Below, one piece after another: positions 1,411 to 23,715 of a DNA stretch of 24,000 bases. Below the pieces are notes generated by a model. It did not search any database and had not been told where the DNA came from. It saw nothing but the letters and a program-made list of their open reading frames with translations. Origin of the DNA: Hyellaceae cyanobacterium CSU_1_1 (GTDB taxonomy: Bacteria; Cyanobacteriota; Cyanobacteriia; Cyanobacteriales; Xenococcaceae); assembly GCA_012034765.1 (NCBI GenBank), contig JAAUOU010000049.1, positions 2,274 through 26,273 of the forward strand, read 5' to 3'. The number at the start of each line of letters is the position of its first letter. Positions within the stretch are counted from its first letter, which is position 1. A program made the translations under genes and the position numbers.

Positions 1411-3741
1411 CTAACCAATTGCTGACATCCTCGCCAGGAAGAATGCCCAAGTGGTGACAATTCCCCCTAGTAGGTAATGAGCTACTCCTACAGCGCGACC
1501 TTGAGTAATACTGAGGGCGCGGGGTTGAATGGCAGGGGTAATCTTGAGCTTGTTGTGGGCCCAAACAATTGATTCGATCAGTTCTTGCCAATAGCCACGA
1601 CCACTAAACAAGAACATGAGACTAAAGGCAAAGACAAAGTGTCCTGCTAAAAACATCAAACCGTAGCCAGAAAGCGCACTATTGTAAGAAGTAATTACTT
1701 GGGAAGCTTGCGCCCAGAGAAAGTCCCGCAGCCAACCGTTATTGGTAATCGAGCTAGTAGCAAAATTACCCGCCGTAATGTGACTGATAGTTCCGTCTGC
1801 GCCTACAGTTCCCCAAACATCGGACTGCATCTTCCAAAAGAAGTGAAAAATTACAATCGATAGAGAGTTATACATCCAAAACAGACCGAGAAAAATATGA
1901 TCCCAGGCTGATACCTGACAAGTACCCCCTCTTCCTGGCCCATCACAGGGGAAGCGGAAACCTAAATCGCCTTTATCGGGAATTAAACGAGAACTACGAG
2001 CATATAAAACGCCTTTGAGTAGTACCAACACCGTGACGTGAATGGTAAAAGCATGAATATGGTGAATCAAAAAGTCTGCCGTCCCCAAGGTAATCGGCAT
2101 CATTGCCACTTTACCCCCAACAGCCAACACTCCCCCACCAAAAGCATAACTTACAGGTTCACTTAACCCAGGTGCAGTAGTTCCCAATCCTCCCAGTGCA
2201 ATATTATTTAAACCACCAAAGACATTCCCTAACGGTTGGGCTGCTTCTAGTGCTGAATTACCAACCGCCATTGTATGGATGTGCTGAATCCACTGAGCAA
2301 AGACGGGCTGTAACTGAATTCCCGTATCCGAAAACATATCTTGGGGACGACCAAAGGCTCGCATTGTATCGTTATGACAATAAATAGCAAAGCTATGGAA
2401 GCCTAAAAATTGACATACCCAGACCAAATGAGAAGTAATAGCATCGCGGTGACGCAGCACTCGGTCTAATAAGTTGTTGACGTTTTCCGCTGGGTTATAA
2501 TCTCGCACCATAAAAATAGCAGCATGAGCAGCAGCACCGACTATCAAAAATCCGCCAATCCAAACATGATGGGTAAACAAAGATAGGGTAGTAGCATAGT
2601 CAGTCGCCAAATAGGGATAGGGTGGCATTGCATACATATGATGTGCCACGATAATGCTAAGAGAACCTAACATTGCTAGATTGATGGCAAGTTGCGCGTG
2701 CCAGGAAGTAGTTAAAATTTCATATAGACCTTTATGTCCTTGACCTGTAAATGGCCCTTTATGAGCTTCTAGTATTTCCTTCATGCTGTGACCAATACCC
2801 CAATTGGTACGGTACATATGTCCCGCAATAATTAAGACCACTGCTAGTGCCAAGTGGTGATGGGCAGTATCCGATAGCCACAAGCCACCTGTAACAGGAT
2901 TCAAACCACCTTTAAAGGTCAGAAAGTCAGAATAGACTCCCCAATTTAGAGTAAAAAATGGTCTTAATCCTTCGGCAAAACTAGGATAAAGTTCAGCCAT
3001 CTTACTAGCATCAATAAATTCATGAGGAAGAGGAATATCCGCAGGAGCAACTCCTGCGTCTAAAAGTTTATTAATGGGTAGTGCCACATGAATTTGATGT
3101 CCTGCCCAGCCTAGTGAACCTAAGCCTAGCAATCCAGCTAAATGATGATTCATCATCGACTCAGCATTTTGAAACCATTCTAATTTGGGGGCGCGGACGT
3201 GATAGTGAAACCAGCCAGCAAAGATCATTAGAGCAGCCATTACTAAACCGCCGATCGCAGTACAATAAAGCTGAAACTCATTAGTAAAACCAGCAGCACG
3301 CCAGAGTTGAAATAAACCAGAAGTGATCTGGATGCCATGAAAACCACCACCCATGTCGCCATTGAGAATGTCTTGACCAAAGATCGGCCAAACTACCTGC
3401 GCGCTGGGTTTAATATTAGTCGGACTGGCTAACCAAGCAGTATAGTTAGAAAACTTGGCACCGTGAAAGTACATTCCACTCAGCCAGACAAAAACTATCG
3501 CTAAATGTCCGAAGTGGGCGGAAAATATTTTGCGGGAAATATCTTCTAAGTCTCCAGTGTGAGTATCAAAATCGTGAGCGTCAGCGTGTAGATTCCAAAT
3601 CCAAGTGGTAGTTTTTGGGCCGCGCGCCAAAGTGCGGTCAAAATGTCCTGGTTTTGCCCACTTTTCAAAAGAAGTAGGTACAGGATTAGTATCTACGACA
3701 ACTTTCGCCTTTTGCTCCGATTCGGAAGGGCTAATTGTCAT
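1411..3741 (-). CDS. psaA2: Photosystem I P700 apoprotein A1 (PsaA), far-red-type paralog
   Basis: 776-aa ORF with a typical PsaA N-terminus ([35 protein letters not shown]) and the FX cluster loop [15 protein letters not shown]. An AAGGAG Shine-Dalgarno sits about 9 nt upstream of the ATG on the minus strand. Confidence 0.97.
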
Positions 3742-3966
3742 TTATATTCTCCTTCACTAGTTAATGGTTATTGGTTATGTACTGTCAATTGCCAACAACT
3801 AATGATAATTAAATGTATTTTGGGTGTAGATTTGCCTATTGTTTTAAACCTGCGCTCTGTAGTGGCGCAGAGGTATAATCGCACTCTTCATTTAGCTTAT
3901 TTCTAGCTAAAACTGAATTGATTTTCTTGGAACGTACTAAATCTGCGTTGTGCAATTTCATCACCA

Positions 3967-4018
3967 TAATTCCTTGCTAAAGGGTAAACATCGACTATTA
4001 CTGCGGTTTCCGAGGCCA
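3967..4018 (-). promoter_or_regulatory. Conserved upstream element, copy 1, oriented toward psaA2
   Basis: The reverse complement reads TGGCCTCGGAAACCGC-AGTAATAGTCGATGTTT-ACCCTTTAGCAAGGAATTA. The same two boxes recur at 10010..10068 and 11299..11352. Confidence 0.6.
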
Positions 4019-4599
4019 AAGGTAATAGAACGACTTTAATAAATTCAACTACTAATCAAACGGGTTTTGTTCGATTGCTTAATTTGTATGATGTTGGAAA
4101 AAAACTAAGTTTTGTGATGCAATATCATAGATTGCTCTATTTAAACTTATATCAAAAGACAATGATTAATTACAAAATGATGCTTTTGTTTTTACAAAAC
4201 TTTAACACTTGAGTATAAAAGTTACTAGGGTTAGTTGTTCTGAGCTTTAAAACCATTTATATATGTATATGGCTTTGATAGAAAAAACAAAATAGATAAT
4301 TATTAAAAATAATCAGTAAAAAACAGCTAACAGGAGCTAAAAGTCAACAATTGTTAAATATCTGAATATTTTTTCAAGTTTTTATGTAGAAGTAGAAATA
4401 AGCTGTTATTCATTTATTTTGATCGCTCACAAGCCTTGCTGCAAAGATTCTAGACTTTGAAAATCCTAATTTAAATGCATGTCAGCTTAATATCAATTTA
4501 TTTGAATCAGACAATAATTAGATAACATTATTTATTCTTTGAGGCATAAAGTCACTTATCTTTGAATTTAAAACTAACATATATTTTGGTTTGCATTTT

Positions 4600-6461
4600 A
4601 TGAAAATCTTATTAGTTGAAGATGATGAACTTATTGCTCAAACCCTAGAAAATGTTTTGCGCGATCGCACTATATAGTCGATCGTGCTGATGAAGGTGAT
4701 TTAGGTTGGGAGTTTGTCGAGGCTTATGATTATGATTTAATTTTGCTCGATATTATTTTACCTAAACTAAACGGAATAGAGTTTTGTAAAAGATTGCGTT
4801 CGGCGGGAAATCAAACTCCAGTATTATTATTGACTGCCCAAAATTCTAGTGATAAAAAAGTAATTGGGTTAGATGCAGGAGCAGATGATTATGTCGTCAA
4901 ACCTTTTGAAATTACCGAATTATTAGCTCGTATTCGTGTTTTATTACGTCGCACAAATTCTTTGTTGTTACCAGTTTTACAATGGAGAGAACTGAGCCTT
5001 AATTCTAGTATTCACGAAGTAGTTTATCAAGAAAAAATACTAAATTTAACTCCCAAAGAATATCGTTTATTAGAGCTTTTCTTACGCAGTAGCGATCTTG
5101 TTTTGACAAAAGAAATGATCTTAGATCGTTTGTGGGACATAGAAGAAGCCCCTAGTGAAAATGCGATAGCGGTTCATATTAAAGATTTACGGCGCAAACT
5201 AAAACAAGCAGGTGCTAGTACTGATTTTATTGAAACTGTTTATGGTATTGGTTATCGTCTTAAGGCATTCAATACCGATACTGCTGCTGAAAAAAGAGAA
5301 AAAAAAGAACCGCAAACAGAACAATTATTGCGCCAACAAATCAAGCAAAAATTAAACACAGTTTGGGAAAAGTTTGAGGACGTAAATAGTGATCGCTTGA
5401 CAATTCTGGAACAAGCAAATCATGCTTGGCTAGCGGATAGTTTAGAAAGTCAGCTTTTAGAACAGGCACAATGGGCTGCTCATAAGCTAGCGGGAGGATT
5501 AGGGGTGTTTGGCTTTGCCCAAGGCTCTCGTTACGCCCTAGAGATGGAAGAATTATTAAAAATCGAATCCAAAACGGATCGAGGGAGAGAATTTTCGGAA
5601 CTATTAGCAGCTTTAAAAAATTCCTTAAAATCTGATCTTGAGCCACAATTAAACCCAGTAAATCAAAATCGACCAGTAATCTTGGCGGTAGATAATCATC
5701 CCCAACTAGTAAAGCAATTAGTCGCTGAGATGAGCGCGCTCGACATGAGCTTTCAACTGGTAAAAAAGCCCATATCTCTGAAAAAGGCTTTAGCCAGGAC
5801 TAGTCTTAATGCTATTATCTGGGATTTTTCCCTGGCTAACTTTACTGCCAAAACCATCGATGAATTTGCTCAAATCCTGGCAGAGAGCTTGCCCCTACCA
5901 ACAATCTTATTTACCGACTCTGAAGAAGAAGCAGCAAAGCTCAAGAACATAACTTCTTTACGGTTAAAAATCGCCCGTCTCAATCATCACATCTTGCTAC
6001 AGCGGGCTAGTTTGGATATGCAGGCTACCAAATCAATCGTCAAAGCTTTACAACAATTTCAGCAGAAAGTTGCCAAAATTCTGGTGGTAGATGATGATCC
6101 ACAGATCCTGGCGACGATCAAAAATTTACTAAACCCCCTCAACATCGACTTGACTGTTTTAGATAAATCCCTAGATTTGTGGCAGATAATCCCTGAATTA
6201 AAGCCAGATCTACTAATCTTGGATGTGGCGATGCCTGACCTAAATGGGATTGAGCTATGTCAACTACTGCGAAATGATTGCCGTTGGCAAGAGTTACCAA
6301 TTTTGTTTTTGACAATTCACAATGACCTTACTACTGTTCAGGAAATTTTAAGAGCAGGTGGTAATGATTGTATTAGTAAAACCCAAACTTCCTCACAATT
6401 AGTTCCTAAAATATTTAATCACCTTAATCGGGGTCAATTACTTACCAGCTTAGTTTCATGA
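4600..6461 (+). pseudogene. rfpB: RfpB-type response regulator (REC, OmpR-type winged helix, HPt-like segment, degenerate REC, REC). The reading frame is broken near 4668 as sequenced, possibly by a sequencing artefact.
   Basis: ATG 4600 opens MKILLVEDDELIAQTLENVLRDRTI* with the stop at 4675. The receiver continues in another frame (HYIVDRADEGDLGWEFVEAYDYDLILLDIILPKLNG...), which is the listed 4743..6461 ORF. Winged-helix segment: LTPKEYRLLELFLRSSDLVLTKEMILDRLW...VYGIGYRL. C-terminal REC: KILVVDDDPQ...DLLILDVAMPDLNG. Confidence 0.85.
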
Positions 6462-8980
6462 ATAATGAACAATTAAATTTTAAGCAACCACAGCATCCTC
6501 AAAGGATTGCTAACGACAAAGCTGATTCTCTAGAGATGTTGCTGCATCGGATGATTAATCGCATTCGACAATCTTTGGAATTGTCGGTCATTCTCTCTGG
6601 CACTACTGCAGAGGTGCGATCTTTTTTAAGAACAGATCGAGTTAAAATTTATCAATTTAAACCAGATGGTAGTGGAGAAGTTGTAGCTGAATCAAGGTGC
6701 GATGACCAAATAAATCATCATTTGCCATCTTTATTGGGTCAACATTTTCCAGAGGAAGATATTCCTCCACAAATCCGCGAACTTTATCTTAAAGATCGCC
6801 ATCGAACTATTGTGAATGTTGCTGCCAACCAAATCGGTATCAGCACCTTAACTGATGAGCATGAGGGTGAATATATTCAATTTCGCACTGTCGATCCTTG
6901 TCATGCTGAATATTTAACGGCAATGGGAGTTCAGTCTTCTTTAGTAGTGCCGATTATTGATGAAGACAACCTTTGGGGATTGTTGGTTTCTCATCATCAT
7001 TGTCCTCGTATAGTGACCGCGAGAGAATTAGAAGTAGTTCAGTTAGTTGCGGATCAAACCTCAATTGCGATCGCTCAATCCAATTTATTAGAATCTGCCC
7101 GCGTCCAAGCCAAGCAAGAAGCCTCAATAAATCTGGTTGGTCAGTCTTTACATTCGATGACTCCCATGCAGCTACAACAGGCTTTGCAGCAAACTGTGGT
7201 GGCTTTACAAGGATCGGGAGGTAGAGTTTATATTGCCCCGCCCAATTCTGATTCAGAAGCACAATTATATGTTTCTGGAGAACAACCTATATTGTTACCC
7301 AGAAAAAAGAAAGCATCAATTCCTTTGGAAGAACATCCAAACTGGCAAACCTGGCTCAAACAAGCGATCGAGAGTGACAGTGTAATTCAACCCTGGGCGA
7401 TTGGTTATGCCAGCTCAAAAAGCATCGTTGAATTAGCTTTAAATCTGTTACCGTCGCAGCTAGAAAGAGCCTTTAAACCGACTAATATCAAAAGTATCTT
7501 AACGATTAGGTTAGAACATCGGCAAAAAATCTTAGGTTATCTCAGTATTTTTCGCCAGGGTGTAGATATTGAGACTATTTGGGCAAAACGTCCCGATCGC
7601 GATGATCCTCGTAATCAATTTCCCCGTCAATCTTTTGAGACTTGGCGCGAACTCCAGCAAAATAAAGCCCGTCAATGGGAGAAGAGAGAAATTGAACTAG
7701 CACAAATTCTAGGTAGTCACTTTGCGATCGCTATTTTTCAATATCAACTATACCAGCAGATTCGCACTCTTAACGCTTCCTTAGAACAGCGAGTGGAAGA
7801 ACGAACAACGGAGTTACAACAAACCAATCAGCAATTAGTCCAGGAAATAAGCGATCGCTTAAAAACCAGAGACTCCCTGGAAAGACTAAGTCATCAAAAT
7901 GAATTGATTTTAAATTCAGCAGGAGAAGGCATTTATGGACTCAACCTAGAAGGGATCACTACCTTTGTTAACCCCGCTGCTGCGGAAATGCTGGGATATC
8001 AGATAAATGAATTAGAAAACCAGCCGATGCACGAGATGGTCAATCACTCGACAGCAGAGGGAGTTGTCTATGCTTGGCAGGATAATCCCATTTATCAAAC
8101 CATCCAAACTGGCGAGATACACCACGTAACTAATGAGGTATTTTGGCACCAAGATAAATCTAATTTTCCCGTAGAATATGTTAGTACTCCCATTAAAGAA
8201 AAAGAGCAGATCGTAGGGGCAGTAGTAATTTTCAAAGATATTACCGAACGACAAATTATGGATCGGATGAAGGACGAATTTATTTCGGTAGTTAGTCATG
8301 AACTGAGAACCCCCCTAACTTCTATTCGTAGTGCGATCGGCGTGTTGTCTAGTAGTGGTTTAGATCCAACATCGAGCAAAAGTCAACGCTTATTAGAAAT
8401 TGCCCTCGATAATTCCAATCGTCTGGTGCGTTTAATTAATGACATTTTAGACTTAGAGCGCATTAAATCTGGCAGAGTAACTATGGTTAAAGGAAGTTAT
8501 GGTGCTACAGAAGTAATGATTGATGCCGTAGAGATCATGCAAGGGATAGCGGATAAAGCTCAGATCCAACTAGCCATACAACCATTATCAGTTCAAGTGC
8601 GAATCGATCGCGATCGCATTATTCAAACCCTCACCAATATAATTAACAATGCTATCAAATTTTCTTCCCCTCATACTTCCGTTGAGATAGCTGCCCAGCT
8701 AATCAGTAATGATATAGTCAGATTTCAGGTGAGAGATCGGGGTAGAGGCATTCCCCAAAAAAACTTAGAAACAATCTTTGATCGTTTTCAACAAGTTGAT
8801 GCTTCCGATTCGCGAGATCAAGGGGGAACGGGTTTAGGGCTGGCAATTTGTCGCAGTATCGTCCAGCAACATGGTGGTCAAATTTGGGTGGAAAGCACGT
8901 TAGATCAAGGTAGTACATTTTATTTCACTTTGCCAATTGGTTATCAAGTCGATACTAGGAAAGAACAATCTCATGACTAG
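6458..8980 (+). CDS. rfpA: RfpA-type knotless phytochrome histidine kinase (GAF with Cys-His bilin motif, GAF/PHY, PAS, HisKA, HATPase)
   Basis: 840 aa. GAF motif FRTVDPCHAEYLTAMGVQSSLVVPI with Cys codon at 6899..6901. PAS segment NSAGEGIYGLNLEGITTFVNPAAAEMLGY. H-box FISVVSHELRTPL with His codon at 8297..8299. G-box GGTGLGLAICRSIVQQHGGQIWVES. The start overlaps the rfpB stop as ATGA (6458..6461). Confidence 0.9.
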   Translation: MNNEQLNFKQPQHPQRIANDKADSLEMLLHRMINRIRQSLELSVILSGTTAEVRSFLRTDRVKIYQFKPDGSGEVVAESRCDDQINHHLPSLLGQHFPEEDIPPQIRELYLKDRHRTIVNVAANQIGISTLTDEHEGEYIQFRTVDPCHAEYLTAMGVQSSLVVPIIDEDNLWGLLVSHHHCPRIVTARELEVVQLVADQTSIAIAQSNLLESARVQAKQEASINLVGQSLHSMTPMQLQQALQQTVVALQGSGGRVYIAPPNSDSEAQLYVSGEQPILLPRKKKASIPLEEHPNWQTWLKQAIESDSVIQPWAIGYASSKSIVELALNLLPSQLERAFKPTNIKSILTIRLEHRQKILGYLSIFRQGVDIETIWAKRPDRDDPRNQFPRQSFETWRELQQNKARQWEKREIELAQILGSHFAIAIFQYQLYQQIRTLNASLEQRVEERTTELQQTNQQLVQEISDRLKTRDSLERLSHQNELILNSAGEGIYGLNLEGITTFVNPAAAEMLGYQINELENQPMHEMVNHSTAEGVVYAWQDNPIYQTIQTGEIHHVTNEVFWHQDKSNFPVEYVSTPIKEKEQIVGAVVIFKDITERQIMDRMKDEFISVVSHELRTPLTSIRSAIGVLSSSGLDPTSSKSQRLLEIALDNSNRLVRLINDILDLERIKSGRVTMVKGSYGATEVMIDAVEIMQGIADKAQIQLAIQPLSVQVRIDRDRIIQTLTNIINNAIKFSSPHTSVEIAAQLISNDIVRFQVRDRGRGIPQKNLETIFDRFQQVDASDSRDQGGTGLGLAICRSIVQQHGGQIWVESTLDQGSTFYFTLPIGYQVDTRKEQSHD

Positions 8981-9341
8981 AAAAATTTTAATTATCGATG
9001 ATGATGACGATATTAGAGAGGCTACCCAACTTTGCTTAGAAATCGTTGGTAATTGGGAAATTGTGACCGCAAATTCGGGAAAAACAGGTTTGGTTGTGGC
9101 GATCTCCCAGCAACCAGCTCTAATTTTGCTCGATGTAATGATGCCAGATATGGATGGTTTAGAAACTCTCAAACAATTACAAGTTAACGCTGTAACTAAA
9201 GACATTCCAGTTATGTTCCTCACGGCAAAAGCCCATCCAGCCGAACAGCGTCAATTTACCCAATTAAAAGTATCAGGGGTGATTACTAAACCCTACGATC
9301 CTTTTGAGCTATCAAATCGCATCGCTAAGGTTTTAGCTTAA
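8973..9341 (+). CDS. rfpC: RfpC-type single-domain CheY-like receiver
   Basis: MTRKILIIDDDDDIREA...LILLDVMMPDMDG...VMFLTAK...VITKPYDP has the full set of receiver signature residues. The preferred start ATG 8973 overlaps the rfpA stop (8978..8980) by 8 nt. The ORF-track start at 8937 only adds non-receiver residues inside rfpA. Confidence 0.85.
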   Translation: MTRKILIIDDDDDIREATQLCLEIVGNWEIVTANSGKTGLVVAISQQPALILLDVMMPDMDGLETLKQLQVNAVTKDIPVMFLTAKAHPAEQRQFTQLKVSGVITKPYDPFELSNRIAKVLA

Positions 9342-9463
9342 CTCAACACAGATGATCTTATCGAAGATAGAAGCGTAAGATCGCGATCTGGTGCTTCATT
9401 GGTTATTCAGATTTGTTGTTTAGTATTCAATTAAGAAAATGTCACACTGTTGACAACTTAGAG

Positions 9464-9874
9464 ATGCTAACACCAACAGATGTCCCGTCAATGCCAATTG
9501 AAACTCGACGTATTTTACTAATTCATACTGATGATGCAATCGCCGAAATGATGCTGCTTTGTCTTGAGACTATTCCCGACTCGGAAGTAATAACGGTAGA
9601 TTCTGGTCTGGAAGGAATTGAGAATGCTTCAGCAGCAGATGTTATTCTCCTCGATATTGATGAAACAATGCCCGATTTATGTTGGAGAGAAATAGTCCAA
9701 AATTTAAAACAAAATTCCTCAACTAATTCCATTCCTCTTATTCTTTTGACAGCTACACCTCAATCTCAAGAGCTACTTGAGTTTCAGCAAAATGAAGAAC
9801 TAAAAGCGATCGCCAAATCCTTCGATCTTCTAAATCTAGTCAATCAGATTTCTCTCCTACTCAACTGGAATTAA
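9464..9874 (+). CDS. Divergent single-domain receiver (CheY-like) directly downstream of rfpC. The start is uncertain: ATG 9464, ATG 9491 or the listed TTG 9413.
   Basis: RRILLIHTDDAIAEMML...ADVILLDIDETMPDL...IPLILLTATPQ...KAIAKSFDLL keeps the acidic pair, the phospho-Asp, the Thr and the Lys positions of a receiver, but with low overall similarity to RfpC. Confidence 0.6.
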   Translation: MLTPTDVPSMPIETRRILLIHTDDAIAEMMLLCLETIPDSEVITVDSGLEGIENASAADVILLDIDETMPDLCWREIVQNLKQNSSTNSIPLILLTATPQSQELLEFQQNEELKAIAKSFDLLNLVNQISLLLNWN

Positions 9875-10009
9875 TTAATACGAACTATTAATTTACCGAT
9901 TATTTACCTTCTTCATAAGTTTTTCAGATTGGTTAGGTAATATTTTTGCAATGGATGTAAATTAGTTGCCATCCAGTTAGAATTCTTTCAGTGATAACCC
10001 CATCGTTTC

Positions 10010-10068
10010 TGGCCTCGGAAACCGCTAACGACGGGGTGTTTTGTCCCTACCCTTTTAGCAAGGAATTA
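10010..10068 (+). promoter_or_regulatory. Conserved upstream element, copy 2, 122 nt upstream of the psbA3 ATG
   Basis: TGGCCTCGGAAACCGC-TAACGACGGGGTGTTTTGTCCCT-ACCCTTTTAGCAAGGAATTA. Confidence 0.6.
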
Positions 10069-10190
10069 CTAATTATGCTATCGCATTTATCCCTTTTTAG
10101 ACAAAATATTCTATTTCCAACATTTTCTCTGTTCGCCGACTCCGAACAAATTTGACTTATCCAACTTTTCTTAAGAGACAGCAAAAAACT

Positions 10191-11273
10191 ATGACTACGA
10201 CTATTGAGCGATCACAACCATCCGACTTATGGGAGCGTTTTTGTCGGTGGGTAACAAGTACGGAGAATCGACTATATATAGGTTGGTTTGGGATTTTGAT
10301 GCTCCCGTTACTAGGCGTTTCTATCTGCGTTTTTACGATCGCCTTTATTGCTGCGCCTCCCGTAGATATTGATGGTATTCGCGAACCTGTATCTGGTTCA
10401 TTGCTCTATGGCAATAATATTATTACCGCAGCCGTAGTACCTACATCCAACGCTGTCGGTTTGCACTTTTATCCCATTTGGGAAGCTGCCTCGGTAGATG
10501 AATGGCTATACAATGGTGGCCCCTATCAAATGATTGCTTTTCACTATATTCCTGCCCTTTGTTGCTATTTGGGTCGAGAATGGGAATTAAGCTATCGCTT
10601 GGGGATGCGTCCTTGGATTTGCGTGGCTTTTAGTGCGCCTTTGGCAGCGACTGTCTCTGTCTTTTTAATCTATCCCATCGGACAGGGAAGTTTTTCAGAC
10701 GGTTTACCTATGGGTATTAGCGGTACATTTAACTTTATGTTTGTCTTTCAAGCCGAGCATAATATTTTGATGCACCCATTCCATATGCTGGGGGTAGCTG
10801 GGGTGTTTGGAGGTTCATTCTTTGCAGCCATGCACGGTTCGTTGGTCACATCCTCTTTGATTAAAGAAACCAGTGATAGCGAGTCTCAAAACAATGGTTA
10901 CAAGTTCGGTCAAGAAGAAGAAACCTACAACATAGTTGCTGCCCACGGCTATTTCGGTCGCTTGATCTTTCAATACGCTAGCTTCCAAAACAGTCGCAAC
11001 TTACATTTTTTCTTAGCAGCATGGCCAGTGGTTTGTATCTGGTTTACCGCTTTGGGTATCTGCATTATGGCATTTAATCTCAACGGCTTTAACTTTAACC
11101 AGTCAATTTTAGACTCTCAGGGACGAGTACTACCTAGTTGGGCAGATGTGATCAACCGTGCCAGTTTGGGATTTGAAGTTATGCACGAGCGAAATGCTCA
11201 TAACTTTCCCTTGGATTTAGCCTGTGGGGAAGCTACGCCCATAGCACTAATAACACCAGTAATTCATAGTTAA
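10191..11273 (+). CDS. psbA3: Photosystem II D1 protein, far-red-type paralog with all Mn-cluster ligands retained
   Basis: From ATG 10191 the product reads [34 protein letters not shown], a canonical D1 N-terminus. It has FSDGLP (D170), FQAEHN (E189), VMHERNAH (H332/E333/H337) and PLDLA (D342/A344) plus a C-terminal extension. The ORF-track TTG at 10152 is an upstream over-extension. Confidence 0.9.
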
Positions 11274-11298
11274 TTACAATCTACTATCTTTTTGTTTT

Positions 11299-11352
11299 TG
11301 GCCTCGGAAACCGCAGCGATAGATAGTTTACAACCCTTTTAGTCAGGAGCTA
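11299..11352 (+). promoter_or_regulatory. Conserved upstream element, copy 3, ending 7 nt before the chlF ATG
   Basis: TGGCCTCGGAAACCGC-AGCGATAGATAGTTTACA-ACCCTTTTAGTCAGGAGCTA. Confidence 0.6.
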
Positions 11353-12590: not shown

Positions 12591-14006
12591 ATGGAAACAC
12601 CTTTTACCGATTTAACTATAAATATCACCGCTACGGCGGGGGATGATATTAATCCAGGACGAGAAGGCAGAGATCAAGCTTCGACTGGATACGCTTGGTG
12701 GGCAGGAAATGCTCGTTTTATCAACCTTTCTGGCAGATTTCTCGGGGCGCACGTTGCCCATGCTGGATTGATTGCCTTTTGGGCAGGAGCAATGCTGCTT
12801 TATGAAGTAGCGCACTATGATCCAGATCTGCCGATGTTTAGACAGGGATGCCTGTTGATGCCTCACATTGCTACATTGGGTTTTGGAGTTGGTCATGGTG
12901 GAGAGGTCATCAGTCTATTTCCCTTTATGGCGATCGCTGTTTTGCATCTGATTGGTTCGGCTGTTTTAGGCATGGGAGGACTTTATCATTCTCTCCGTGG
13001 GCCCAGCAAACTAGCTGGCTTTTATGATTTTGACTGGTCTGATAAGGACAAGATTACTGACATCTTAGGATATAACCTCATTGCTTTAGGCATCGGTGCA
13101 TTACTCTTGGTCTGTAAAGCCATGTTTTGGGGTGGTATTTACGACACCTGGCTACCTGGAGGCGGAGATGTACGTCTGGTAACAAATCCGACTCTCGATC
13201 CTAGAGTTATTTTTGGTTACTTTTTCAGTAGCCCTCTTGGGGGTAGTGGTTGGCTTGTAGGGGTTAATAACCTTGAAGATATTATTGGCGGTCATATCTG
13301 GATGGGGGGAATCTTAATTGCTGGTGGTATCTGGCATATTTTGACCGTTCCCTTTAAATGGACTGATAAAGTTTTTATTTGGTCGGGAGAAGCCTATCTG
13401 GCTCAAAGCTTGGGCAATATAGCAGGACAGGGATTTATTGCTGCTATGTTTATCTGGTTTAACAATACTGCTTATCCCAGTGAATTTTATGGCCCTACTG
13501 TTGCCGAATCTTCCCAAGCGCAATCATTAGTATTTCTGATTAGAGACCAAGATTTAGGCGCAAATATTGGTTCGACACAAGGGCCTGTGGGTTTGGGTAA
13601 ATACTTAATGCGATCGCCTACAGGAGAGATTATCTTTGGTGGAGAAACCATGCGCTTCTGGGATTTTCGCGGTCCTTGGCTAGAGCCTTTACGGGGAGAT
13701 CACGGTTTAGACCTGGATAAGCTGCGTAACGATGTTCAACCCTGGCAAGTACGACGGGCAGCGGACTATATGGTGCAAGCACCGATGGGGTCAATTAACT
13801 CTGTAGCAGGTTTAGCCACTGAAATAAACGGCTTTAACTTTTTATCCATACGTACCTGGATGACTGGTTCGCATATTATTCTCGCTTTCTTTTTCTTAGT
13901 CGGTCATTGGTGGCACGCAGGGAGAGCAAGAGCGCAAGCTGCTGGCTTTGAGAGAGGACTCGATCGGGATGATGAACCCGTTTTATCGATGGGAGATATT
14001 GATTGA
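12591..14006 (+). CDS. psbC2: Photosystem II CP43 (PsbC), far-red-type paralog
   Basis: 471 aa with [71 protein letters not shown]... and C-terminal [19 protein letters not shown]. Confidence 0.95.
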
Positions 14007-15859: not shown

Positions 15860-17409
15860 ATGGGTTTACCTTGGTATCGCGTCCATACAGTAGTGTTAAA
15901 CGACCCAGGACGATTGATAGCCGTTCATTTAATGCACAATGCACTGTGTGCGGGCTTTGCTGGTTCGATGCTGTTGTTTGAACTAGCTTTATACGACCCT
16001 AGTGATGCTGTTCTTAATCCGATGTGGCGACAGGGCTGTTTCTTAATGCCGTTTGTAGCTCGTTTGGGAGTAACCAATTCCTGGCAGGGTTGGAGTATCA
16101 CGGGTGAAACCCTTAGCGATCCTGGTTTTTGGACTTTTGAAACTGTGGCGATCGCTCACATTATTTTATCAGGGCTATCGTTTTTAGCCGCCTGTTGGCA
16201 TTGGGTTAACTGGGATTTGGTGACTTTCTTTGACGAAGAAGGTCAACCTACCTTAGATTTACCCAAAATATTTGGCATACATCTTTTACTCGCTGGTTTA
16301 CTCTGCTTTGGTTTTGGTGCTTTTCATCTCACGGGCATTTTTGGGCCAGGGATGTGGGTGTCAGACCCATATGGATTAACAGGACATATGCAAAATGTTG
16401 CTCCCGTCTGGGATGCAGCGGGTTTCGATCCTGATAATCCTGGGGGAGTAGTGGCACACCATATTGCCGCTGGCATTGTCGGTATTATCGGCGGACTATT
16501 TCATATCGTGGTGCGTCCTTCAGAGGAACTATATAAACTACTGAGGATGGGTAACATCGAGGGGGCATTAGCTAGTGGTTTGGCAGTCTTCTTTTTTGCA
16601 GGTGCGATCGCTAGTGGTTCAATGTGGTACGGAACGGCAACAACTCCTGTAGAACTATGGGGGCCAACTCGTTTTCAATGGGATAAGGGCTACTATCAAC
16701 AGGAAATCTCCCGCAGAGTAGAAAATAACTTGGTAGCAGGGGATAGTTTATCTCAGGCTTGGTCAAGTATCCCAGAAAAATTACTGTTCTATGACTACAT
16801 CGGTAACAATCCCTCTAAGGGTGGTTTATTCCGCTATGGTCGCATGGTTGATGGCGATGGTTTACCTCTGGCTTGGCTTGGTCATCCGATTTTCCAAGAC
16901 GATGCAGGAAGAGAGTTAACAGTTAGGCGCATGACTAGCTTTTTTGAAACTTTTCCCACTGTCTTAACTGACGAAAATAACATCGTTCGTGCTGATATTC
17001 CCTTCCGTAGAGTCGAAGCAAAAAATAGCTTTGAGCAAACAGGAGTTACTGTTAGTTTCTACGGCGGACTGTTAGACGGTCAAACTTTTACTGACCCTGT
17101 AAAAGTCAAAAATATGCTCGTCAAGCAGTATTAGGAGAAGCCTTTGAATTTGATACGCAAACCTATAATTCCGATGGCGTATTCCGCACTAGTAATCGAG
17201 GTTTCTTTGCCTATTTCCACGCCTGCTTTGCTTTACTCTGGTTTTTCGGTCATATCTGGCATGGCACGCGAGCCTTATTCAGCGATGTCTTTGCTGGTAT
17301 CAATATCGAACTAGAAGAACAAGTCGAGTTTGGCGTTTGGGCAAAAGTTGGCGATGTTACCAGTCGTAAAAAGCCAGAAGCTTTAGCAATTGAAAGTCAA
17401 TCCAAGTAA
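15860..17409 (+). pseudogene. psbB2: Photosystem II CP47 (PsbB), far-red-type paralog. The frame is broken in an A5 run at 17108..17112 as sequenced, possibly by a sequencing artefact.
   Basis: The listed ORF 15860..17134 ends ...[15 protein letters not shown]. The missing CP47 C-terminus ([63 protein letters not shown]...[20 protein letters not shown]...) is open in the neighbouring frame as far as TAA 17407..17409. Confidence 0.9.
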
Positions 17410-19485: not shown

Positions 19486-21772
19486 ATGAACGTTAATACA
19501 GGTGGCGGTAGTCCCATTGTTAACCCGCAACTATATCAAACAACACCTCTTGCCGTAATTTCTCAAGCCGAACAGCAGGATCGTTTGCCAAAACAAAGTG
19601 AACTCAATCGACTTGCCAGTTATTTTAGCTCTGGTACAAAGTTATTAGAAATTGTCGATACCCTGAATCAGAATGCCGATGCAATCGTGGCTGCTGGGGG
19701 CGATCGCATTTTCTCTGGCGGTAATTCGATGGACTATCTAGAAAAGCCTAAAGAATTAGTCGATTTGCCTGGTTATGTAAAACCTATCACTGTTGCTAGT
19801 GCTGCGGTTGCCAAAGCAAATGCTACTCAGAATCAGAATAAATTTAAGACTTTTCCCGAGTCTCGATCTTTAATTAAAGGTCGTACCTTCAACTTTGTCG
19901 AATTGTTAATGGAAATAGTTTATCGACTCCAAGCAACAGGCAAAGAACCACTGCCAGGAGGATTCAGACCGATCAATATCTCTCGTTATGGCGAAAGAAG
20001 AATGAAGCGGTCAATGCGAGACTTAGGTTGGTTTCTACGCTATATTACCTATGCGATCGTGGCTGATGATCCGAGTATTTTGGTAGTAAATGCCAGAGGA
20101 CTACGGGGTGTCATTCCTGAAGATGTCACCGTAGCTACTATAGTCGCTCTCAAAGAAATGTGCTGGAAGTCTTTGAGCTATTTTCCCGATCATGAAGAGG
20201 CAAAAGATACTATCAAATATTACTTTTATGTCTTAATTAAAGAATACGAAGTTGAAAAGCCTGCTGCCAAATTGCGAGTAGGTGTATCCAATGACCAACA
20301 GGGACTAGAGTTACCCCAAAGTTATTCCTTAGCAGCAGAATCACGACCAAAGTTTGTGATGAAACACAACGCCTCGGCGATAGAAAAGCAAGCAGTAGTT
20401 AAAGCAGCTTATCGACAAGTATTTAAATGCGACATCGATCGCACCTACGGCATTACTTTTAAACAATTGGAGTCTCAGGTTACGGGTAGCAATACCTCGG
20501 TGAAAGAGTTTATTCGCAGCTTGGGTAAAACTCGTCTCTATCGTCGCTTGTTTTACGAACCATACACCATTTCTAGAGTGATCGAACTGGCATTTCGGCA
20601 CTTTTTTGGGACGGGGTTTGAGTTCGATAGAAGAGTTTCAAGATTACTTTGAAATCATGGCTCGTGGTGGTTTACCAGCTTTGATTGACGCTTTAGTGGA
20701 CTCTGCCGAATACGCTGATTATTTTGGTGAAGAAACTGTTCCCTATCTGCGAGGTTTGGGTCAAGAAGCTCAAGAATGCCGTAATTGGGGAGCGCAGCTA
20801 AATCTATTCAAATATAGTGCTGCGGTGCGAAAAGTACCTCAATTTGTCACGATGTTTGGCAACTATCAACAACCTCTATCCAACCAGCATCCCTACGGTG
20901 TGGGCAATGATCCTTTAGAAACTCAATTTGGTGCAGTTTTCCCAAGTGAAACCAACAATCCTTATGCTCAACCAGCATCCTTTAATAAAGATCATCACCG
21001 TCTGCTGCTACATTCTAGTTCAAGAATTCAAAATGTAACTAATAATTACTCTTCAAAAGAGATTTTAAAACAAAGCCAAAATGATAACAAACATCGGCAG
21101 CGAAATATTAATCTCTCAAATCATTCTGTTGAAGCCATCATTACAGGAGTATATCGGCAGGTTTTGGGACGTGAGCCTTTTTCTGGTCAACATTTAACCG
21201 TAGCTGAAACCAAACTAAGAAATAGTGAAATTAGCGTCCGTGAGTTTGTCCGACAGTTAGCTAAATCCTCCTGGTTTCGTAATTTGTATTGGGATAATCT
21301 TTATATTACTAAAGCGATCGAGTGTATTCATCGGCGTTTATTAGGTCGTCCTACCTACGGACGTGGGGAAATGAATCGATATTACGATCTTTGCTCCAAA
21401 AAAGGCTTTTATGCTCTAGTTGATGAAATCTTAGACAGTGATGAATACTTAGAAGTGTTTGGCGAAGATATAGTCCCCTACGAACGTTATCTAACCCCCA
21501 GAGGTTGGGCAAGGCGATCGCTCTCTCAACCGATTAACTGGTCACAGGCTCAACTAGATCGTCAGCATACTGCGGGAGAAGTTATAGCCGAAAAAATTAG
21601 GGAAGATCGCGATCGTCTGACCAGATTAGCATCCCAAAGCAACGGTCATGTTCGCGATCGAGTAGCAGAACAAACATCCTTAAAAACAATTGAGGACAGT
21701 AAGGAGCCAGTTACTAACTCCAATTCAATTCCAGTTGAACTCGAACCAGAAAAGCTAAAAGCTGATAGCTAA
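19486..21772 (+). pseudogene. apcE2: Phycobilisome core-membrane linker ApcE, short far-red-type paralog with two REP (linker) domains. The frame is broken in a T6 run at 20602..20607 as sequenced, possibly by a sequencing artefact.
   Basis: The listed ORFs 19486..20652 and 20606..21772 overlap in different frames. The first ends ...[24 protein letters not shown]. The second begins (L)[49 protein letters not shown], the continuation of the same Pfam00427-type linker domain. The N-terminal phycobiliprotein-like domain contains MKRSMRDLGWFLRYITYAIVADDPS. Confidence 0.9.
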
Positions 21773-22791: not shown

Positions 22792-23715
22792 TTACTGCCA
22801 AGCAATCTGCTCCACATCTCTCTGAAGGTCTTCACTCGTTCCACGAACATAAACCATTGTCGTATCTAGAGAATCATGTCCCATAATTTGAGCCAAACGA
22901 TGCAAAGGAACAGTTTCCGCCATGCGATAACCGAAACGATGACGTAAATCGTGAGGACTAACATCTTCAACCCCAGCAATTCGGGCATATTTATCAACTA
23001 AATATCCCAAGGCACGAGTAGTTATCGTAGTTTTTGTTTTCCGAGAAACAAATAGCCAACTACCTGTTACCGTAGGGAGATATTCTGACAACACCTTTCT
23101 AGCTGTCGCATTGAGAGGAACTTCTCGATACTTGTTTCGTTTGCCATAAACCTGTAGATAGCCACCGCGTTTTCTTAAATGAATATGCTCGCTCTTTAGC
23201 TGACAAACCTCTGCTGCTCTCAAACCCGTATGAAGCATTAAGATTATAATTGCCCTATCTCTGAATAAACCATGACTTGTGACTGCTGAGACAAGTGCCG
23301 ATTCTTCCGCATCGTTGATTTGACGGGGTGAAGATTTCATCAAAGGAATTAATTTAACTACTGTCGCAGGATTGTTAGTAATCTTTTTCAAGTCAACAGC
23401 CCAAGAAAAATAAGATTTGAGAGTTACCAAATAACGATTGATAGAAGCAGGAGCTAATTTTAGTTGAGATTGAAGATAACTGCGATAACGAATTAAAGTA
23501 GGGGTAGTAATTTGCTCTAGTTGAAAACCAACCCTTATTGCTTCAGAAGATTTGATACTTTTGGTTTCATACCAAACTATAAAGGAGTGTAGATCGGATA
23601 AATAATTACGAATCGTTACAGGACTAATATCTCTTTGCCCACATAGATATGATTTGTAGTCGGCTAATTCCTGACGACTTGATAGCGATAAAGATGAGAT
23701 AGCACCAGGTTTCAT
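22792..23715 (-). CDS. Tyrosine site-specific recombinase (XerC/XerD / phage-integrase family, TnpI-like role suspected)
   Basis: 307 aa with an N-terminal SAM-like core-binding segment (ISPVTIRNYLSDLHSFIVWY) and the catalytic signature TGLRAAEV ... HDLRHRFG ... GHDSLDTTMVYVR (Arg, His-x-x-Arg, His, Tyr). Confidence 0.85.
   Translation of the reverse strand: MKPGAISSLSLSSRQELADYKSYLCGQRDISPVTIRNYLSDLHSFIVWYETKSIKSSEAIRVGFQLEQITTPTLIRYRSYLQSQLKLAPASINRYLVTLKSYFSWAVDLKKITNNPATVVKLIPLMKSSPRQINDAEESALVSAVTSHGLFRDRAIIILMLHTGLRAAEVCQLKSEHIHLRKRGGYLQVYGKRNKYREVPLNATARKVLSEYLPTVTGSWLFVSRKTKTTITTRALGYLVDKYARIAGVEDVSPHDLRHRFGYRMAETVPLHRLAQIMGHDSLDTTMVYVRGTSEDLQRDVEQIAWQ

Follow-up and report, generated by a model that had tools for sequence, protein, structure and literature searches.

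A candidate structured RNA element with an invariant loop in the leaders of far-red photosystem genes of Pleurocapsales

Introduction

The window analysed here is a stretch of 24,000 nt from Hyellaceae cyanobacterium CSU_1_1 (JAAUOU010000049.1, positions 2,274 to 26,273, forward strand), which carries a far-red light photoacclimation (FaRLiP) gene cluster. Within it a bipartite non-coding element, box 1 followed by box 2, occurs three times, 5' of psaA2, psbA3 and chlF. An earlier note on this DNA proposed the element as a cis-element of the far-red regulon, either an operator or promoter module of the regulator RfpB or an RNA element shared by 5' untranslated regions (5' UTRs). The locus thus raises the question of which of the two it is, and of what accounts for the three copies. 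Regulation of FaRLiP has so far been described only as a transcriptional cascade of RfpA, RfpB and RfpC, in which the target site of RfpB is without experimental proof; the RfpB-binding motif was still being sought as of Liu et al. 2023 (PMC10127269).

Here we describe the element as a predicted hairpin with a covarying stem, an invariant exposed loop (box 1), a fixed geometry relative to a ribosome-binding site (in box 2) and a location inside gene leaders, and because of these four properties we read it as cis-acting RNA. That it acts at the RNA level in some way appears probable from the sequences compared. To the more specific reading, in which the loop is read by a trans-acting partner and thereby sets translation or stability, we would give an even chance. 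The existence of such a factor, like the direction of its effect, is something we infer.

Copies of the element in the window

Box 1 (TGGCCTCGGAAACCGC; 11 of its 16 bases are G or C) matches the window without mismatch at exactly three sites, each followed by a box 2, as the earlier note had it. No fourth box 1 was found in the window at up to 3 mismatches, and none of 100 dinucleotide shuffles of the window contained three box 1 matches (mean 0.19). The reported spacers between the boxes (17, 23 and 18 nt on the psaA2, psbA3 and chlF sides) were reproduced, as were the stretches of 225, 122 and 7 nt that separate box 2 from the start codons of psaA2 (3741), psbA3 (10191) and chlF (11360). The copies are referred to below as P-type (psaA2 side), A3-type (psbA3 side) and F-type (chlF side), and the hairpin stem as P1; matches to the covariance model (CM) of the element are given in bits.

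4018..4003 (-), 10010..10025 (+) and 11299..11314 (+): box 1, exact 16-mer
3985..3967 (-), 10049..10068 (+) and 11333..11352 (+): box 2
9998..10036 (+): A3-type hairpin P1 (CCCCATCGTT / AACGACGGGG) enclosing box 1, psbA3-side copy, CM 85.5 bits
10049..10068 (+): A3-type box 2, pyrimidine tract CCCTTTT and Shine-Dalgarno-like AAGGA
11283..11327 (+): F-type hairpin P1 (ACTATCT..TTGT / GCGA.AGATAGT) enclosing box 1, chlF-side copy
11333..11352 (+): F-type box 2, with CAGGAG as Shine-Dalgarno sequence for chlF (ATG 11360)
3991..4033 (-): P-type hairpin P1 (TCG..CTATTA / TAATAG.CGA) enclosing box 1, psaA2-side copy
3967..3985 (-): P-type box 2, ACCCTTTAGCAAGGAATTA

The F-type hairpin starts 10 nt 3' of the psbA3 stop codon, inside the 87-nt spacer between psbA3 and chlF; its P1 has a duplex energy of -9.5 kcal/mol and the copy matches the CM with 81.2 bits.

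Distribution

A scan of one genome per species (185,579 species) with the pattern CTCGGAAACCG-N12-42-CCCTTT-N0-1-AGNNAGGA, both boxes being required, returned 23 matches in 21 stretches of 13 assemblies, where about 1 match is expected by chance. The assemblies belong to Pleurocapsa, Pleurocapsales LEGE 10410, Hydrococcus, Hyella, Waterburya, Xenococcaceae and four marine metagenome-assembled genomes; wherever the record names a taxon, the 13 genomes are all of Pleurocapsales type. Culturable strains among the carriers are Pleurocapsa sp. CCALA 161, Hydrococcus rivularis NIES-593 and Hyella patelloides LEGE 07179. Relaxed searches and the CM, applied to the window, the metagenome locus L001 and the scanned loci, yielded 31 strong copies, and all 31 sit 5' of orthologues of psbA3, chlF or psaA2. 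Thirteen are A3-type copies before PsbA3 orthologues, with 85-96% identity in 12 of the 13, the remaining one (L092) being a 31-residue stub only; six are F-type copies before ChlF orthologues (67-86% identity) and twelve are P-type copies before PsaA2 orthologues (90-98% identity).

The element is thus specific to FaRLiP clusters and is not a generic repeat, which agrees with the earlier proposal of a cis-element of the far-red regulon: it occurs in 13 of 185,579 species genomes, and the 31 strong copies all have this gene context. In a metagenome scan for ChlF, 79 of 80 loci proved to be ordinary psbA and L001 was the sole FaRLiP cluster; the 79 served as negative controls. The CM gave 0 matches in 558 kb made up of these 79 loci and 4 other FaRLiP loci, and nothing significant in FaRLiP loci of Nostocales, Chroococcidiopsis, Phormidesmis or Leptolyngbyaceae.

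In L105 (J06648_1) psbA3 begins 1053 nt downstream of the A3-type copy, compared with the usual distance of about 200 nt. Insertions or rearrangements between leader and psbA3 are likely in this locus and in L092 (Waterburya).

Secondary structure

Box 1 forms the apical loop, of about 22 nt, of a predicted hairpin with a stem of 8-12 bp, and the inverted repeats that flank it differ between copies yet stay complementary. A3-type stems read CCCCATCG/CGATGGGG, or CCCCTCG/CGAGGGG in Hydrococcus, and the stem is kept with compensatory variants in all 13 orthologous copies. The 12 orthologous P-type copies share a TCGATT/AATCGA base, above which the upper stem is ATCGC/GCGAT, CTTAC/GTAAG, ATTGC/GCAAT or ATTA/TAAT. 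The F-type stem of the window consists of ACTATCT/AGATAGT plus TTGT/GCGA. The sequence AG.(G/A)ATAG, taken earlier for a shared spacer between the boxes, does stand there, but it is the 3' stem arm and pairs with sequence 5' of box 1.

The pairing was assessed by a partner-permutation test that is independent of alignment. None of 20,000 permutations of stem arms reached the observed duplex total, neither within the P-type nor over all 30 copies; P-type arms form duplexes of -12.95 kcal/mol on average with their cognate partners versus -9.50 kcal/mol with non-cognate ones, and arm pairs across classes average only -4.6 to -7.0 kcal/mol. In the CM alignment 82.6% of the cells pair, versus 69.1% after shuffling and 26-60% in slid controls, the covariation score is 0.385 versus 0.193 (reached in 0 of 500 shuffles), and 10 of the 11 P1 pairs have changes on both sides; in the MAFFT and CM alignments alike the A3-type lower stem lies one column off, which inflates the 'unpaired' cells in these pairing and covariation figures. 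As independent evidence, RNAalifold applied to the 12 P-type copies in a plain MAFFT alignment gave back P1, an inner helix UGG/CCG and, within box 2, the hairpin CCU/AGG. These comparisons of sequences show a predicted secondary structure conserved through compensatory changes, so that the RNA fold considered in the earlier note finds support in the covariation of P1.

The loop behaves differently from the stem: its core is CUCGGAAACCG, in which the bases CTCGGAAA and CG are unchanged in 31 of 31 strong copies, and the flanks show about 66% identity. Changes at the loop edge (TGAC, TGTT, TAAA) are found in chlF-side copies only. Box 1 is predicted to be mostly unpaired (mean 0.74 over all copies). 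The Shine-Dalgarno sequence is partly sequestered in the predicted folds (mean unpaired 0.34), its best partner being the CC of box 2 in about 18 of 29 copies; the CCUU/AAGG hairpin that, according to the earlier note, could sequester it is predicted as well, and the bases of this hairpin never vary. On inspection a loop-tail pseudoknot, a pairing of box 1 with the Shine-Dalgarno sequence and complementarity to 16S rRNA amount to at most 3-4 bp and were set aside.

A small second hairpin, TGTTCG..CGAACA, lies at 10130-10148 (+) of the window between the element and the psbA3 start, and GTTCG..CGAAC is common to several orthologous psbA3 leaders (L001, L092, L098, L103).

The element was also considered as a member of the intrinsic terminator or attenuator class, which was rejected: there is no terminator-like site, the loop measures about 22 nt, and a U-run occurs in the A3-type only.

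Box 2 and the downstream reading frames

Box 2 consists of a pyrimidine tract and a Shine-Dalgarno sequence and follows the hairpin after 5-14 nt. F-type copies that retain it have an ATG 7-11 nt further on, and in P-type copies the start of an open reading frame (ORF) falls 57-60 nt beyond the position where box 1 begins. The short ORFs of 43 and 26 codons that had been noted behind the psaA2- and psbA3-side copies exist, except that the conserved start on the psaA2 side is the second ATG (3961), which leaves 41 codons.

3836..3961 (-): 41-codon ORF, start 57 nt after the first base of box 1, decayed receiver-domain gene

In five genomes (L086, L088, L090, L094, L097) the psaA2-side Shine-Dalgarno sequence serves a protein of 193-239 aa, whose ORF begins 59-60 nt after box 1. 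This protein has a C-terminal receiver domain (Pfam Response_reg in the L088 protein), about 30% identical to the receiver of RfpC, and an N-terminal half of no assigned kind. It could represent a response regulator associated with FaRLiP that has gone unrecognised. The window ORF matches the intact protein by tblastn with 44% over the first 32 codons; in the window and 5 other genomes the gene has decayed to 29-56 codons, with hairpin and box 2 intact. The earlier statement that each copy is aimed at a far-red photosystem gene holds on the psaA2 side for the position 5' of psaA2, but psaA2 is not the gene directly behind this copy, the Shine-Dalgarno sequence belonging to the receiver-protein gene in those five genomes.

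Promoter-like motifs upstream

Sequences resembling promoters lie upstream of the psbA3-side and psaA2-side copies, and one further before the receiver gene at 9464-9874.

9912..9943 (+): T-rich motif TTCATAAGTTTTTCA-N11-TAATAT, starting 98 nt upstream of A3-type box 1, TAATAT at 9938
9395-9426 (+): T-rich motif TTCATTGGTTATTCA-N11-TAGTAT, before receiver gene 9464-9874, TAGTAT at 9421
4146..4203 (-): promoter-like block of the P-type, AAAGTTTTGTAAAAA (4203..4189), about 37 nt, TATAAG (4151..4146)

The T-rich motif has two copies of TTCA spaced 11 nt apart and then a -10-like hexamer, with a hexamer offset of 26 nt at both window sites (9395 and 9912). Its 12-base pattern TTCATNNGTTNTTCA has 21 exact matches in the 231 kb of FaRLiP DNA searched, where chance would give about 0.03. 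TTCATnnGTTnTTCA...TAnnAT precedes chlF in 8 of 8 other FaRLiP loci (Fischerella, Chroococcidiopsis, Phormidesmis, a Leptolyngbyaceae metagenome-assembled genome, Nostoc, Calothrix and two further clusters), exactly in seven and with 2 mismatches in L109. The consensus upstream of chlF in these loci is CTTCATyrGTTyTTCA-N11-TAnnnT, and its window counterpart is the 33-mer CTTCATnrGTTyTTCA..TAnnnT at 9911-9943, separate from box 1 and box 2. The distance from the T-rich motif to the box 1 core is 99-104 nt in 10 A3-type copies and 196 nt in Hydrococcus. The P-type upstream block was aligned over 12 species; GTTTTGTAAAA is invariant and TATAAG conserved (TTTTGTAAAAA...TATAAG; AAGTTTTGTAAAA...TATAAG). 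The sequence TTTTGTAAA in this block is the same as one often found 5' of the T-rich motif (Fischerella, Chroococcidiopsis, Calothrix).

Regulators of the OmpR/PhoB type use direct repeats, and TTCA repeats combined with a -10-like hexamer are the layout expected of such an activator. The T-rich motif at 9912 is likely an RfpB-dependent promoter that forms no part of the hairpin, and by its layout it would be a better candidate for the RfpB box than box 1 or box 2. A generic sigma-70 scan was uninformative for such activator-dependent promoters.

With start sites inferred from these motifs, about 55-115 nt separate the element from the -10-like hexamers upstream of it, and at psbA3 the hairpin would begin about 45-50 nt after the start site. 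The psbA3 and psaA2 copies would therefore stand in transcribed leaders, as judged from the motifs upstream of them. The chlF copy is certain to be transcribed on the gene strand, because the Shine-Dalgarno sequence lies within its box 2 and the 87-nt spacer, too small for the promoter motif, separates co-oriented genes. Position downstream of promoter-like motifs, the covarying stem and the identity of box 2 with the chlF ribosome-binding site together favour the earlier note's alternative of a shared 5'-UTR RNA element.

The motif at 9395 is kept in 8 related loci, exactly in 6 and with one mismatch in 2. The receiver gene behind it, probably rfpD, more likely starts at ATG 9464 than at the listed TTG 9413, because the TTG would lie upstream of the inferred transcription start.

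Origin of the copies

The earlier note held that shared ancestry could not explain the copies, which does not agree with the sequence behind box 2 on the psbA3 side, where a remnant of a chlF start is retained (ATGTTACAGC). The A3-type copies continue after box 2 with ATGTTACMGCATTTAT, a match to the chlF start as it reads in the window (ATGATACAGC) and in L105 (ATGTTACAGCGC). The ATG at 10075 is this remnant, and the 26-codon ORF that it opens is not conserved; in 5 of 13 A3-type copies the ATG has decayed to ATC, ATA or ATT, the neighbouring bases being conserved.

Outside Pleurocapsales it is chlF that stands directly under the T-rich promoter. The chlF leaders of these other orders have a hairpin at the same place with a similar stem (CCCATCGC/GCGGTGGG in Chroococcidiopsis, CCATCGC/GCGATGG in Fischerella, CCCCATTG/CAATGGGG in L108), unrelated loops of about 20 nt and then the Shine-Dalgarno region; the CM finds a weak match in the Fischerella chlF leader (E 0.07). 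Because promoter and hairpin serve chlF in these orders, the psbA3 leader of Pleurocapsales is best understood as the old chlF leader. The three copies look like duplicates of an ancestral chlF leader: chlF, now behind psbA3, would carry a second copy, and the third would have come to lie before psaA2. Shared ancestry explains the resemblance of the copies; the invariant loop amid the turnover of stems still needs explaining.

Possible function

The mechanism that we propose places the module in the leaders and the intercistronic spacer of three FaRLiP transcription units of Pleurocapsales. The ancestral chlF leader would have been duplicated before psbA3, or retained there, and also placed before the receiver-protein gene upstream of psaA2. 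Once RfpB-dependent transcription has started at the upstream T-rich promoter, a lineage-specific protein or small RNA would recognise the exposed loop, and this factor, acting at the ribosome-binding site next to it, would set the initiation of translation, the stability of the mRNA or both, so that the photosystem II (PSII), chlorophyll f synthase and photosystem I (PSI) units would be coupled post-transcriptionally. The wider suggestion, that one loop before the psbA3, chlF and psaA2 units makes up an RNA regulon and hence a second, post-transcriptional tier of FaRLiP atop RfpABC, is put forward tentatively. Two layers can be separated in the same leaders, a T-rich promoter motif found throughout FaRLiP and a structured RNA, specific to the order, by which the leaders of the PSII, ChlF and PSI units are linked, and the leaders also record a duplication of the chlF leader as psbA3 came to stand before chlF. 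If functional, the element would offer a handle on how chlorophyll f synthase is balanced against two remodelled photosystems, and far-red-inducible expression systems would gain from it a compact RNA part, about 60 nt long.

A small-RNA partner with a GCGGUUUCCGAGGCCA-like seed may be envisaged, with a homologue of PsrR1 among the candidates. The Rfam consensus of PsrR1 has CGGUUUC, complementary to GAAACCG of box 1, a coincidence estimated to arise by accident at about 5%. A weak Rfam match to PsrR1 (16.4 bits, E 0.7-2.2) also lies at 3705-3772 (+) of the window, on the complement of the ribosome-binding site and start of psaA2; it arises because the psaA2 initiation region is complementary to the stretch of PsrR1 that pairs with Shine-Dalgarno sequence and AUG. 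Both complementarities, to the psaA2 start region and to box 1, are near chance level.

Several observations weigh against an RNA element with a trans-acting partner. The CM alignment is fitted to the model structure, with the A3-type lower stem out of register, and the invariance of the loop leaves UGG/CCG, CGG/CCG and a pairing of linker UG with CGGA as alternative internal folds. P1 holds 17 G.U versus 16 A.C cells and so has no strand bias; by stem energy 14 copies favour sense and 16 antisense, and the whole hairpin folds better in antisense by about 3 kcal/mol in 24 of 30 copies. That the sense strand is the one to fold in vivo is again what we infer. Neither a trans-acting factor nor a conserved complement of box 1 was found in the clusters, where only chance-level 8-mers occur. 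FaRLiP orders outside Pleurocapsales manage without box 1, and the chlF-side copy appears dispensable because it is degenerate in some genomes (box 1 is missing in L085 and box 2 in L089, and the box 1 edges are altered in L087 and L101). Finally, the placement in 5' UTRs is putative, as drawn from promoter-like motifs.

The homologous hairpins with non-conserved loops in chlF leaders of other orders would suit a purely structural RNA that has no sequence-specific partner. Such a hairpin could protect or process the transcript and stabilise the mRNA downstream, for instance once an RNase has cut within the psbA3-chlF spacer, or it could be a leader attenuator or pause hairpin. The beginning of the F-type copy 10 nt after the psbA3 stop fits such a role, and in the A3-type a G+C-rich stem is followed by the U-rich run CUUUUGU. 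P- and F-type copies, by comparison, have no U-run directly after the stem, and a terminator scan was negative at all three sites. A stabiliser or attenuator without partner thus accounts for the ancestral hairpin, and it does not account for the loop, as neither a stabiliser nor a terminator needs 11-16 invariant loop bases over 31 copies. We regard this explanation as unlikely.

Somewhat less likely still is a DNA operator, in which box 1, alone or with box 2, would be a double-stranded site by which RfpB or another transcription factor switches the three units on in far-red light. A site of 16 bp that is invariant over 13 genomes and three paralogous positions, specific to FaRLiP and partly palindromic (CGGAAACCG) would suit a DNA-binding protein, and the strand comparison gives sense RNA no preference. 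A protein-DNA site does not predict compensatory change in the flanking inverted repeats, however, and the NCBIfam models against which RfpB scores best (RppA and PhoB) point to direct repeats as its target. Boxes 1 and 2 are not direct repeats: they are unrelated sequences 17-25 nt apart at variable spacing, lacking tandem repeats of about 10-11 bp, and, with start sites inferred as above, they would neither lie upstream of a -35 region nor overlap one. The element instead lies downstream of the promoter-like motifs, at chlF 7 nt from the ATG, and a better candidate for the RfpB box is at hand in the T-rich motif with its TTCA repeats 11 nt apart and -10-like hexamer. The earlier idea of an RfpB operator or promoter module is accordingly disfavoured.

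Small pseudoknot riboswitches have a stem that covaries, and both their loop and their 3' tail, which overlaps the Shine-Dalgarno sequence, are conserved. The element resembles them in layout, and this resemblance, together with the predicted partial sequestration of the Shine-Dalgarno sequence by CCU of box 2, would permit a sensor in which the loop and the ACCCUUUUAG tail form a small ligand pocket, perhaps for a pigment or precursor, by which the Shine-Dalgarno sequence would be opened or closed. Such a sensor is improbable: loop-tail complementarity never exceeds 3 bp on inspection, with no visible pseudoknot, Rfam yields no match, the distance between hairpin and box 2 varies from 5 to 14 nt, and the element is confined to one order although the chemistry is common to all FaRLiP lineages. 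That the copies have no function at all, being recent duplicates or gene-conversion tracts not yet diverged, is in keeping with their paralogy and with the chlF-start remnants after box 2 and is nevertheless very hard to maintain, because conservation across species contradicts it: each class is orthologously kept in up to 13 genomes, whose ChlF proteins share no more than 67-86% identity, the non-coding DNA around the copies can no longer be aligned, and stem turnover has been compensatory.

Other features of the window

NCBIfam models confirm a psaA paralogue, psbA3, chlF, psbC2, psbD3, psbB2 and CheY-like proteins in the window, as well as an RfpB-like regulator with an output domain of OmpR/PhoB type and a phytochrome-type, RfpA-like kinase; the apc genes were recognised by Pfam. 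A tyrosine recombinase gene of the phage-integrase family lies at the edge of the cluster (22792-23715, -). The gene psbB2 (15860-17134, +) has 424 codons compared with 504 in the CP47 profile, and apcE2 (19486-21772, +) is split into two overlapping ORFs of 388 codons; the shortening of the one and the split of the other are frameshifts, through assembly error or gene decay.

Strong Rfam matches to IsrR (134-149 bits) lie at 13035-13221 (-), antisense within psbC2, the far-red CP43 paralogue, and likewise in L089, L095, L101, L102 and L103. They probably reflect coding homology with isiA; alternatively there may be an IsrR-like antisense RNA against psbC2.

Comparison with known systems

A repeated FaRLiP sequence has been described in a preprint (Antonaru et al., bioRxiv 10.1101/2024.05.15.594131) as a T-rich intergenic motif with 'chlF', 'long' and 'short' forms. 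In its accessible text the motif is present in all FaRLiP lineages, has a conserved 3' region of 33 bp and a 5' region about 12 bp away, precedes chlF, psbA3, psa, apc and rfpD and is absent before rfpABC; its authors hypothesise that RfpB binds it and think that it spread by duplication from the region upstream of chlF. To go by this description, the preprint's motif is best fitted by TTCATnnGTTnTTCA...TAnnAT (window 9912 and 9395), which agrees with every descriptor given there, including the 'short psbA3 motifs in group IV', which corresponds to Pleurocapsales.

The present element and that motif, as described, are alike in being repeated non-coding FaRLiP sequences before chlF, psbA3 and psa genes, bipartite and about 59-61 bp long. 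The preprint's motif also stands before rfpD, whereas neither box 1 nor box 2 occurs before the receiver gene 9464-9874, which has the T-rich motif at 9395. Identity of the two was considered and, as far as the preprint's accessible text describes its motif, rejected: box 1 is G+C-rich, confined to Pleurocapsales and about 100 nt further downstream.

Searches of the literature found no RNA element in FaRLiP and no description of the box 1 hairpin in searchable text. The element matched no Rfam family at the gathering score, whether in the window or in the 20 related loci searched, and around the three copies matches at E up to 10 held none of relevance, only noise. Structured RNAs 5' of psaA or psbA genes are known in Rfam as the psaA RNA motif and PhotoRC-I/II, of unknown mechanism.

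In the Chlamydomonas chloroplast, the psbA 5' UTR has a stem-loop and a ribosome-binding site that are bound by a light-regulated protein complex. The element is like that leader in having a hairpin just upstream of a Shine-Dalgarno-like sequence of a D1-family gene as a proposed site of protein recognition, and differs from it in lacking sequence similarity and in also serving a PSI operon and chlF. Targets of CsrA/RsmA have dual GGA sites bridged by the CsrA dimer. A comparable layout is seen here, with one GGA in the box 1 loop (CUCGGAAAC) and a second in AAGGA of box 2, 39-45 nt apart and so within the bridging range of the dimer, but the conservation of box 1 extends well past the GGA core. 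Stabiliser hairpins at 5' or intercistronic positions are known from the E. coli ompA leader and the Rhodobacter puf operon; they stand at the start of a cistron, as the F-type hairpin does after the psbA3 stop, and need no invariant loop.

The T-rich motif, then, is already described in the preprint, and the box 1 hairpin appears new, being absent from the searchable literature and from Rfam. We regard the element as an order-restricted addition to the familiar structured leader RNAs and not as a new kind of system.

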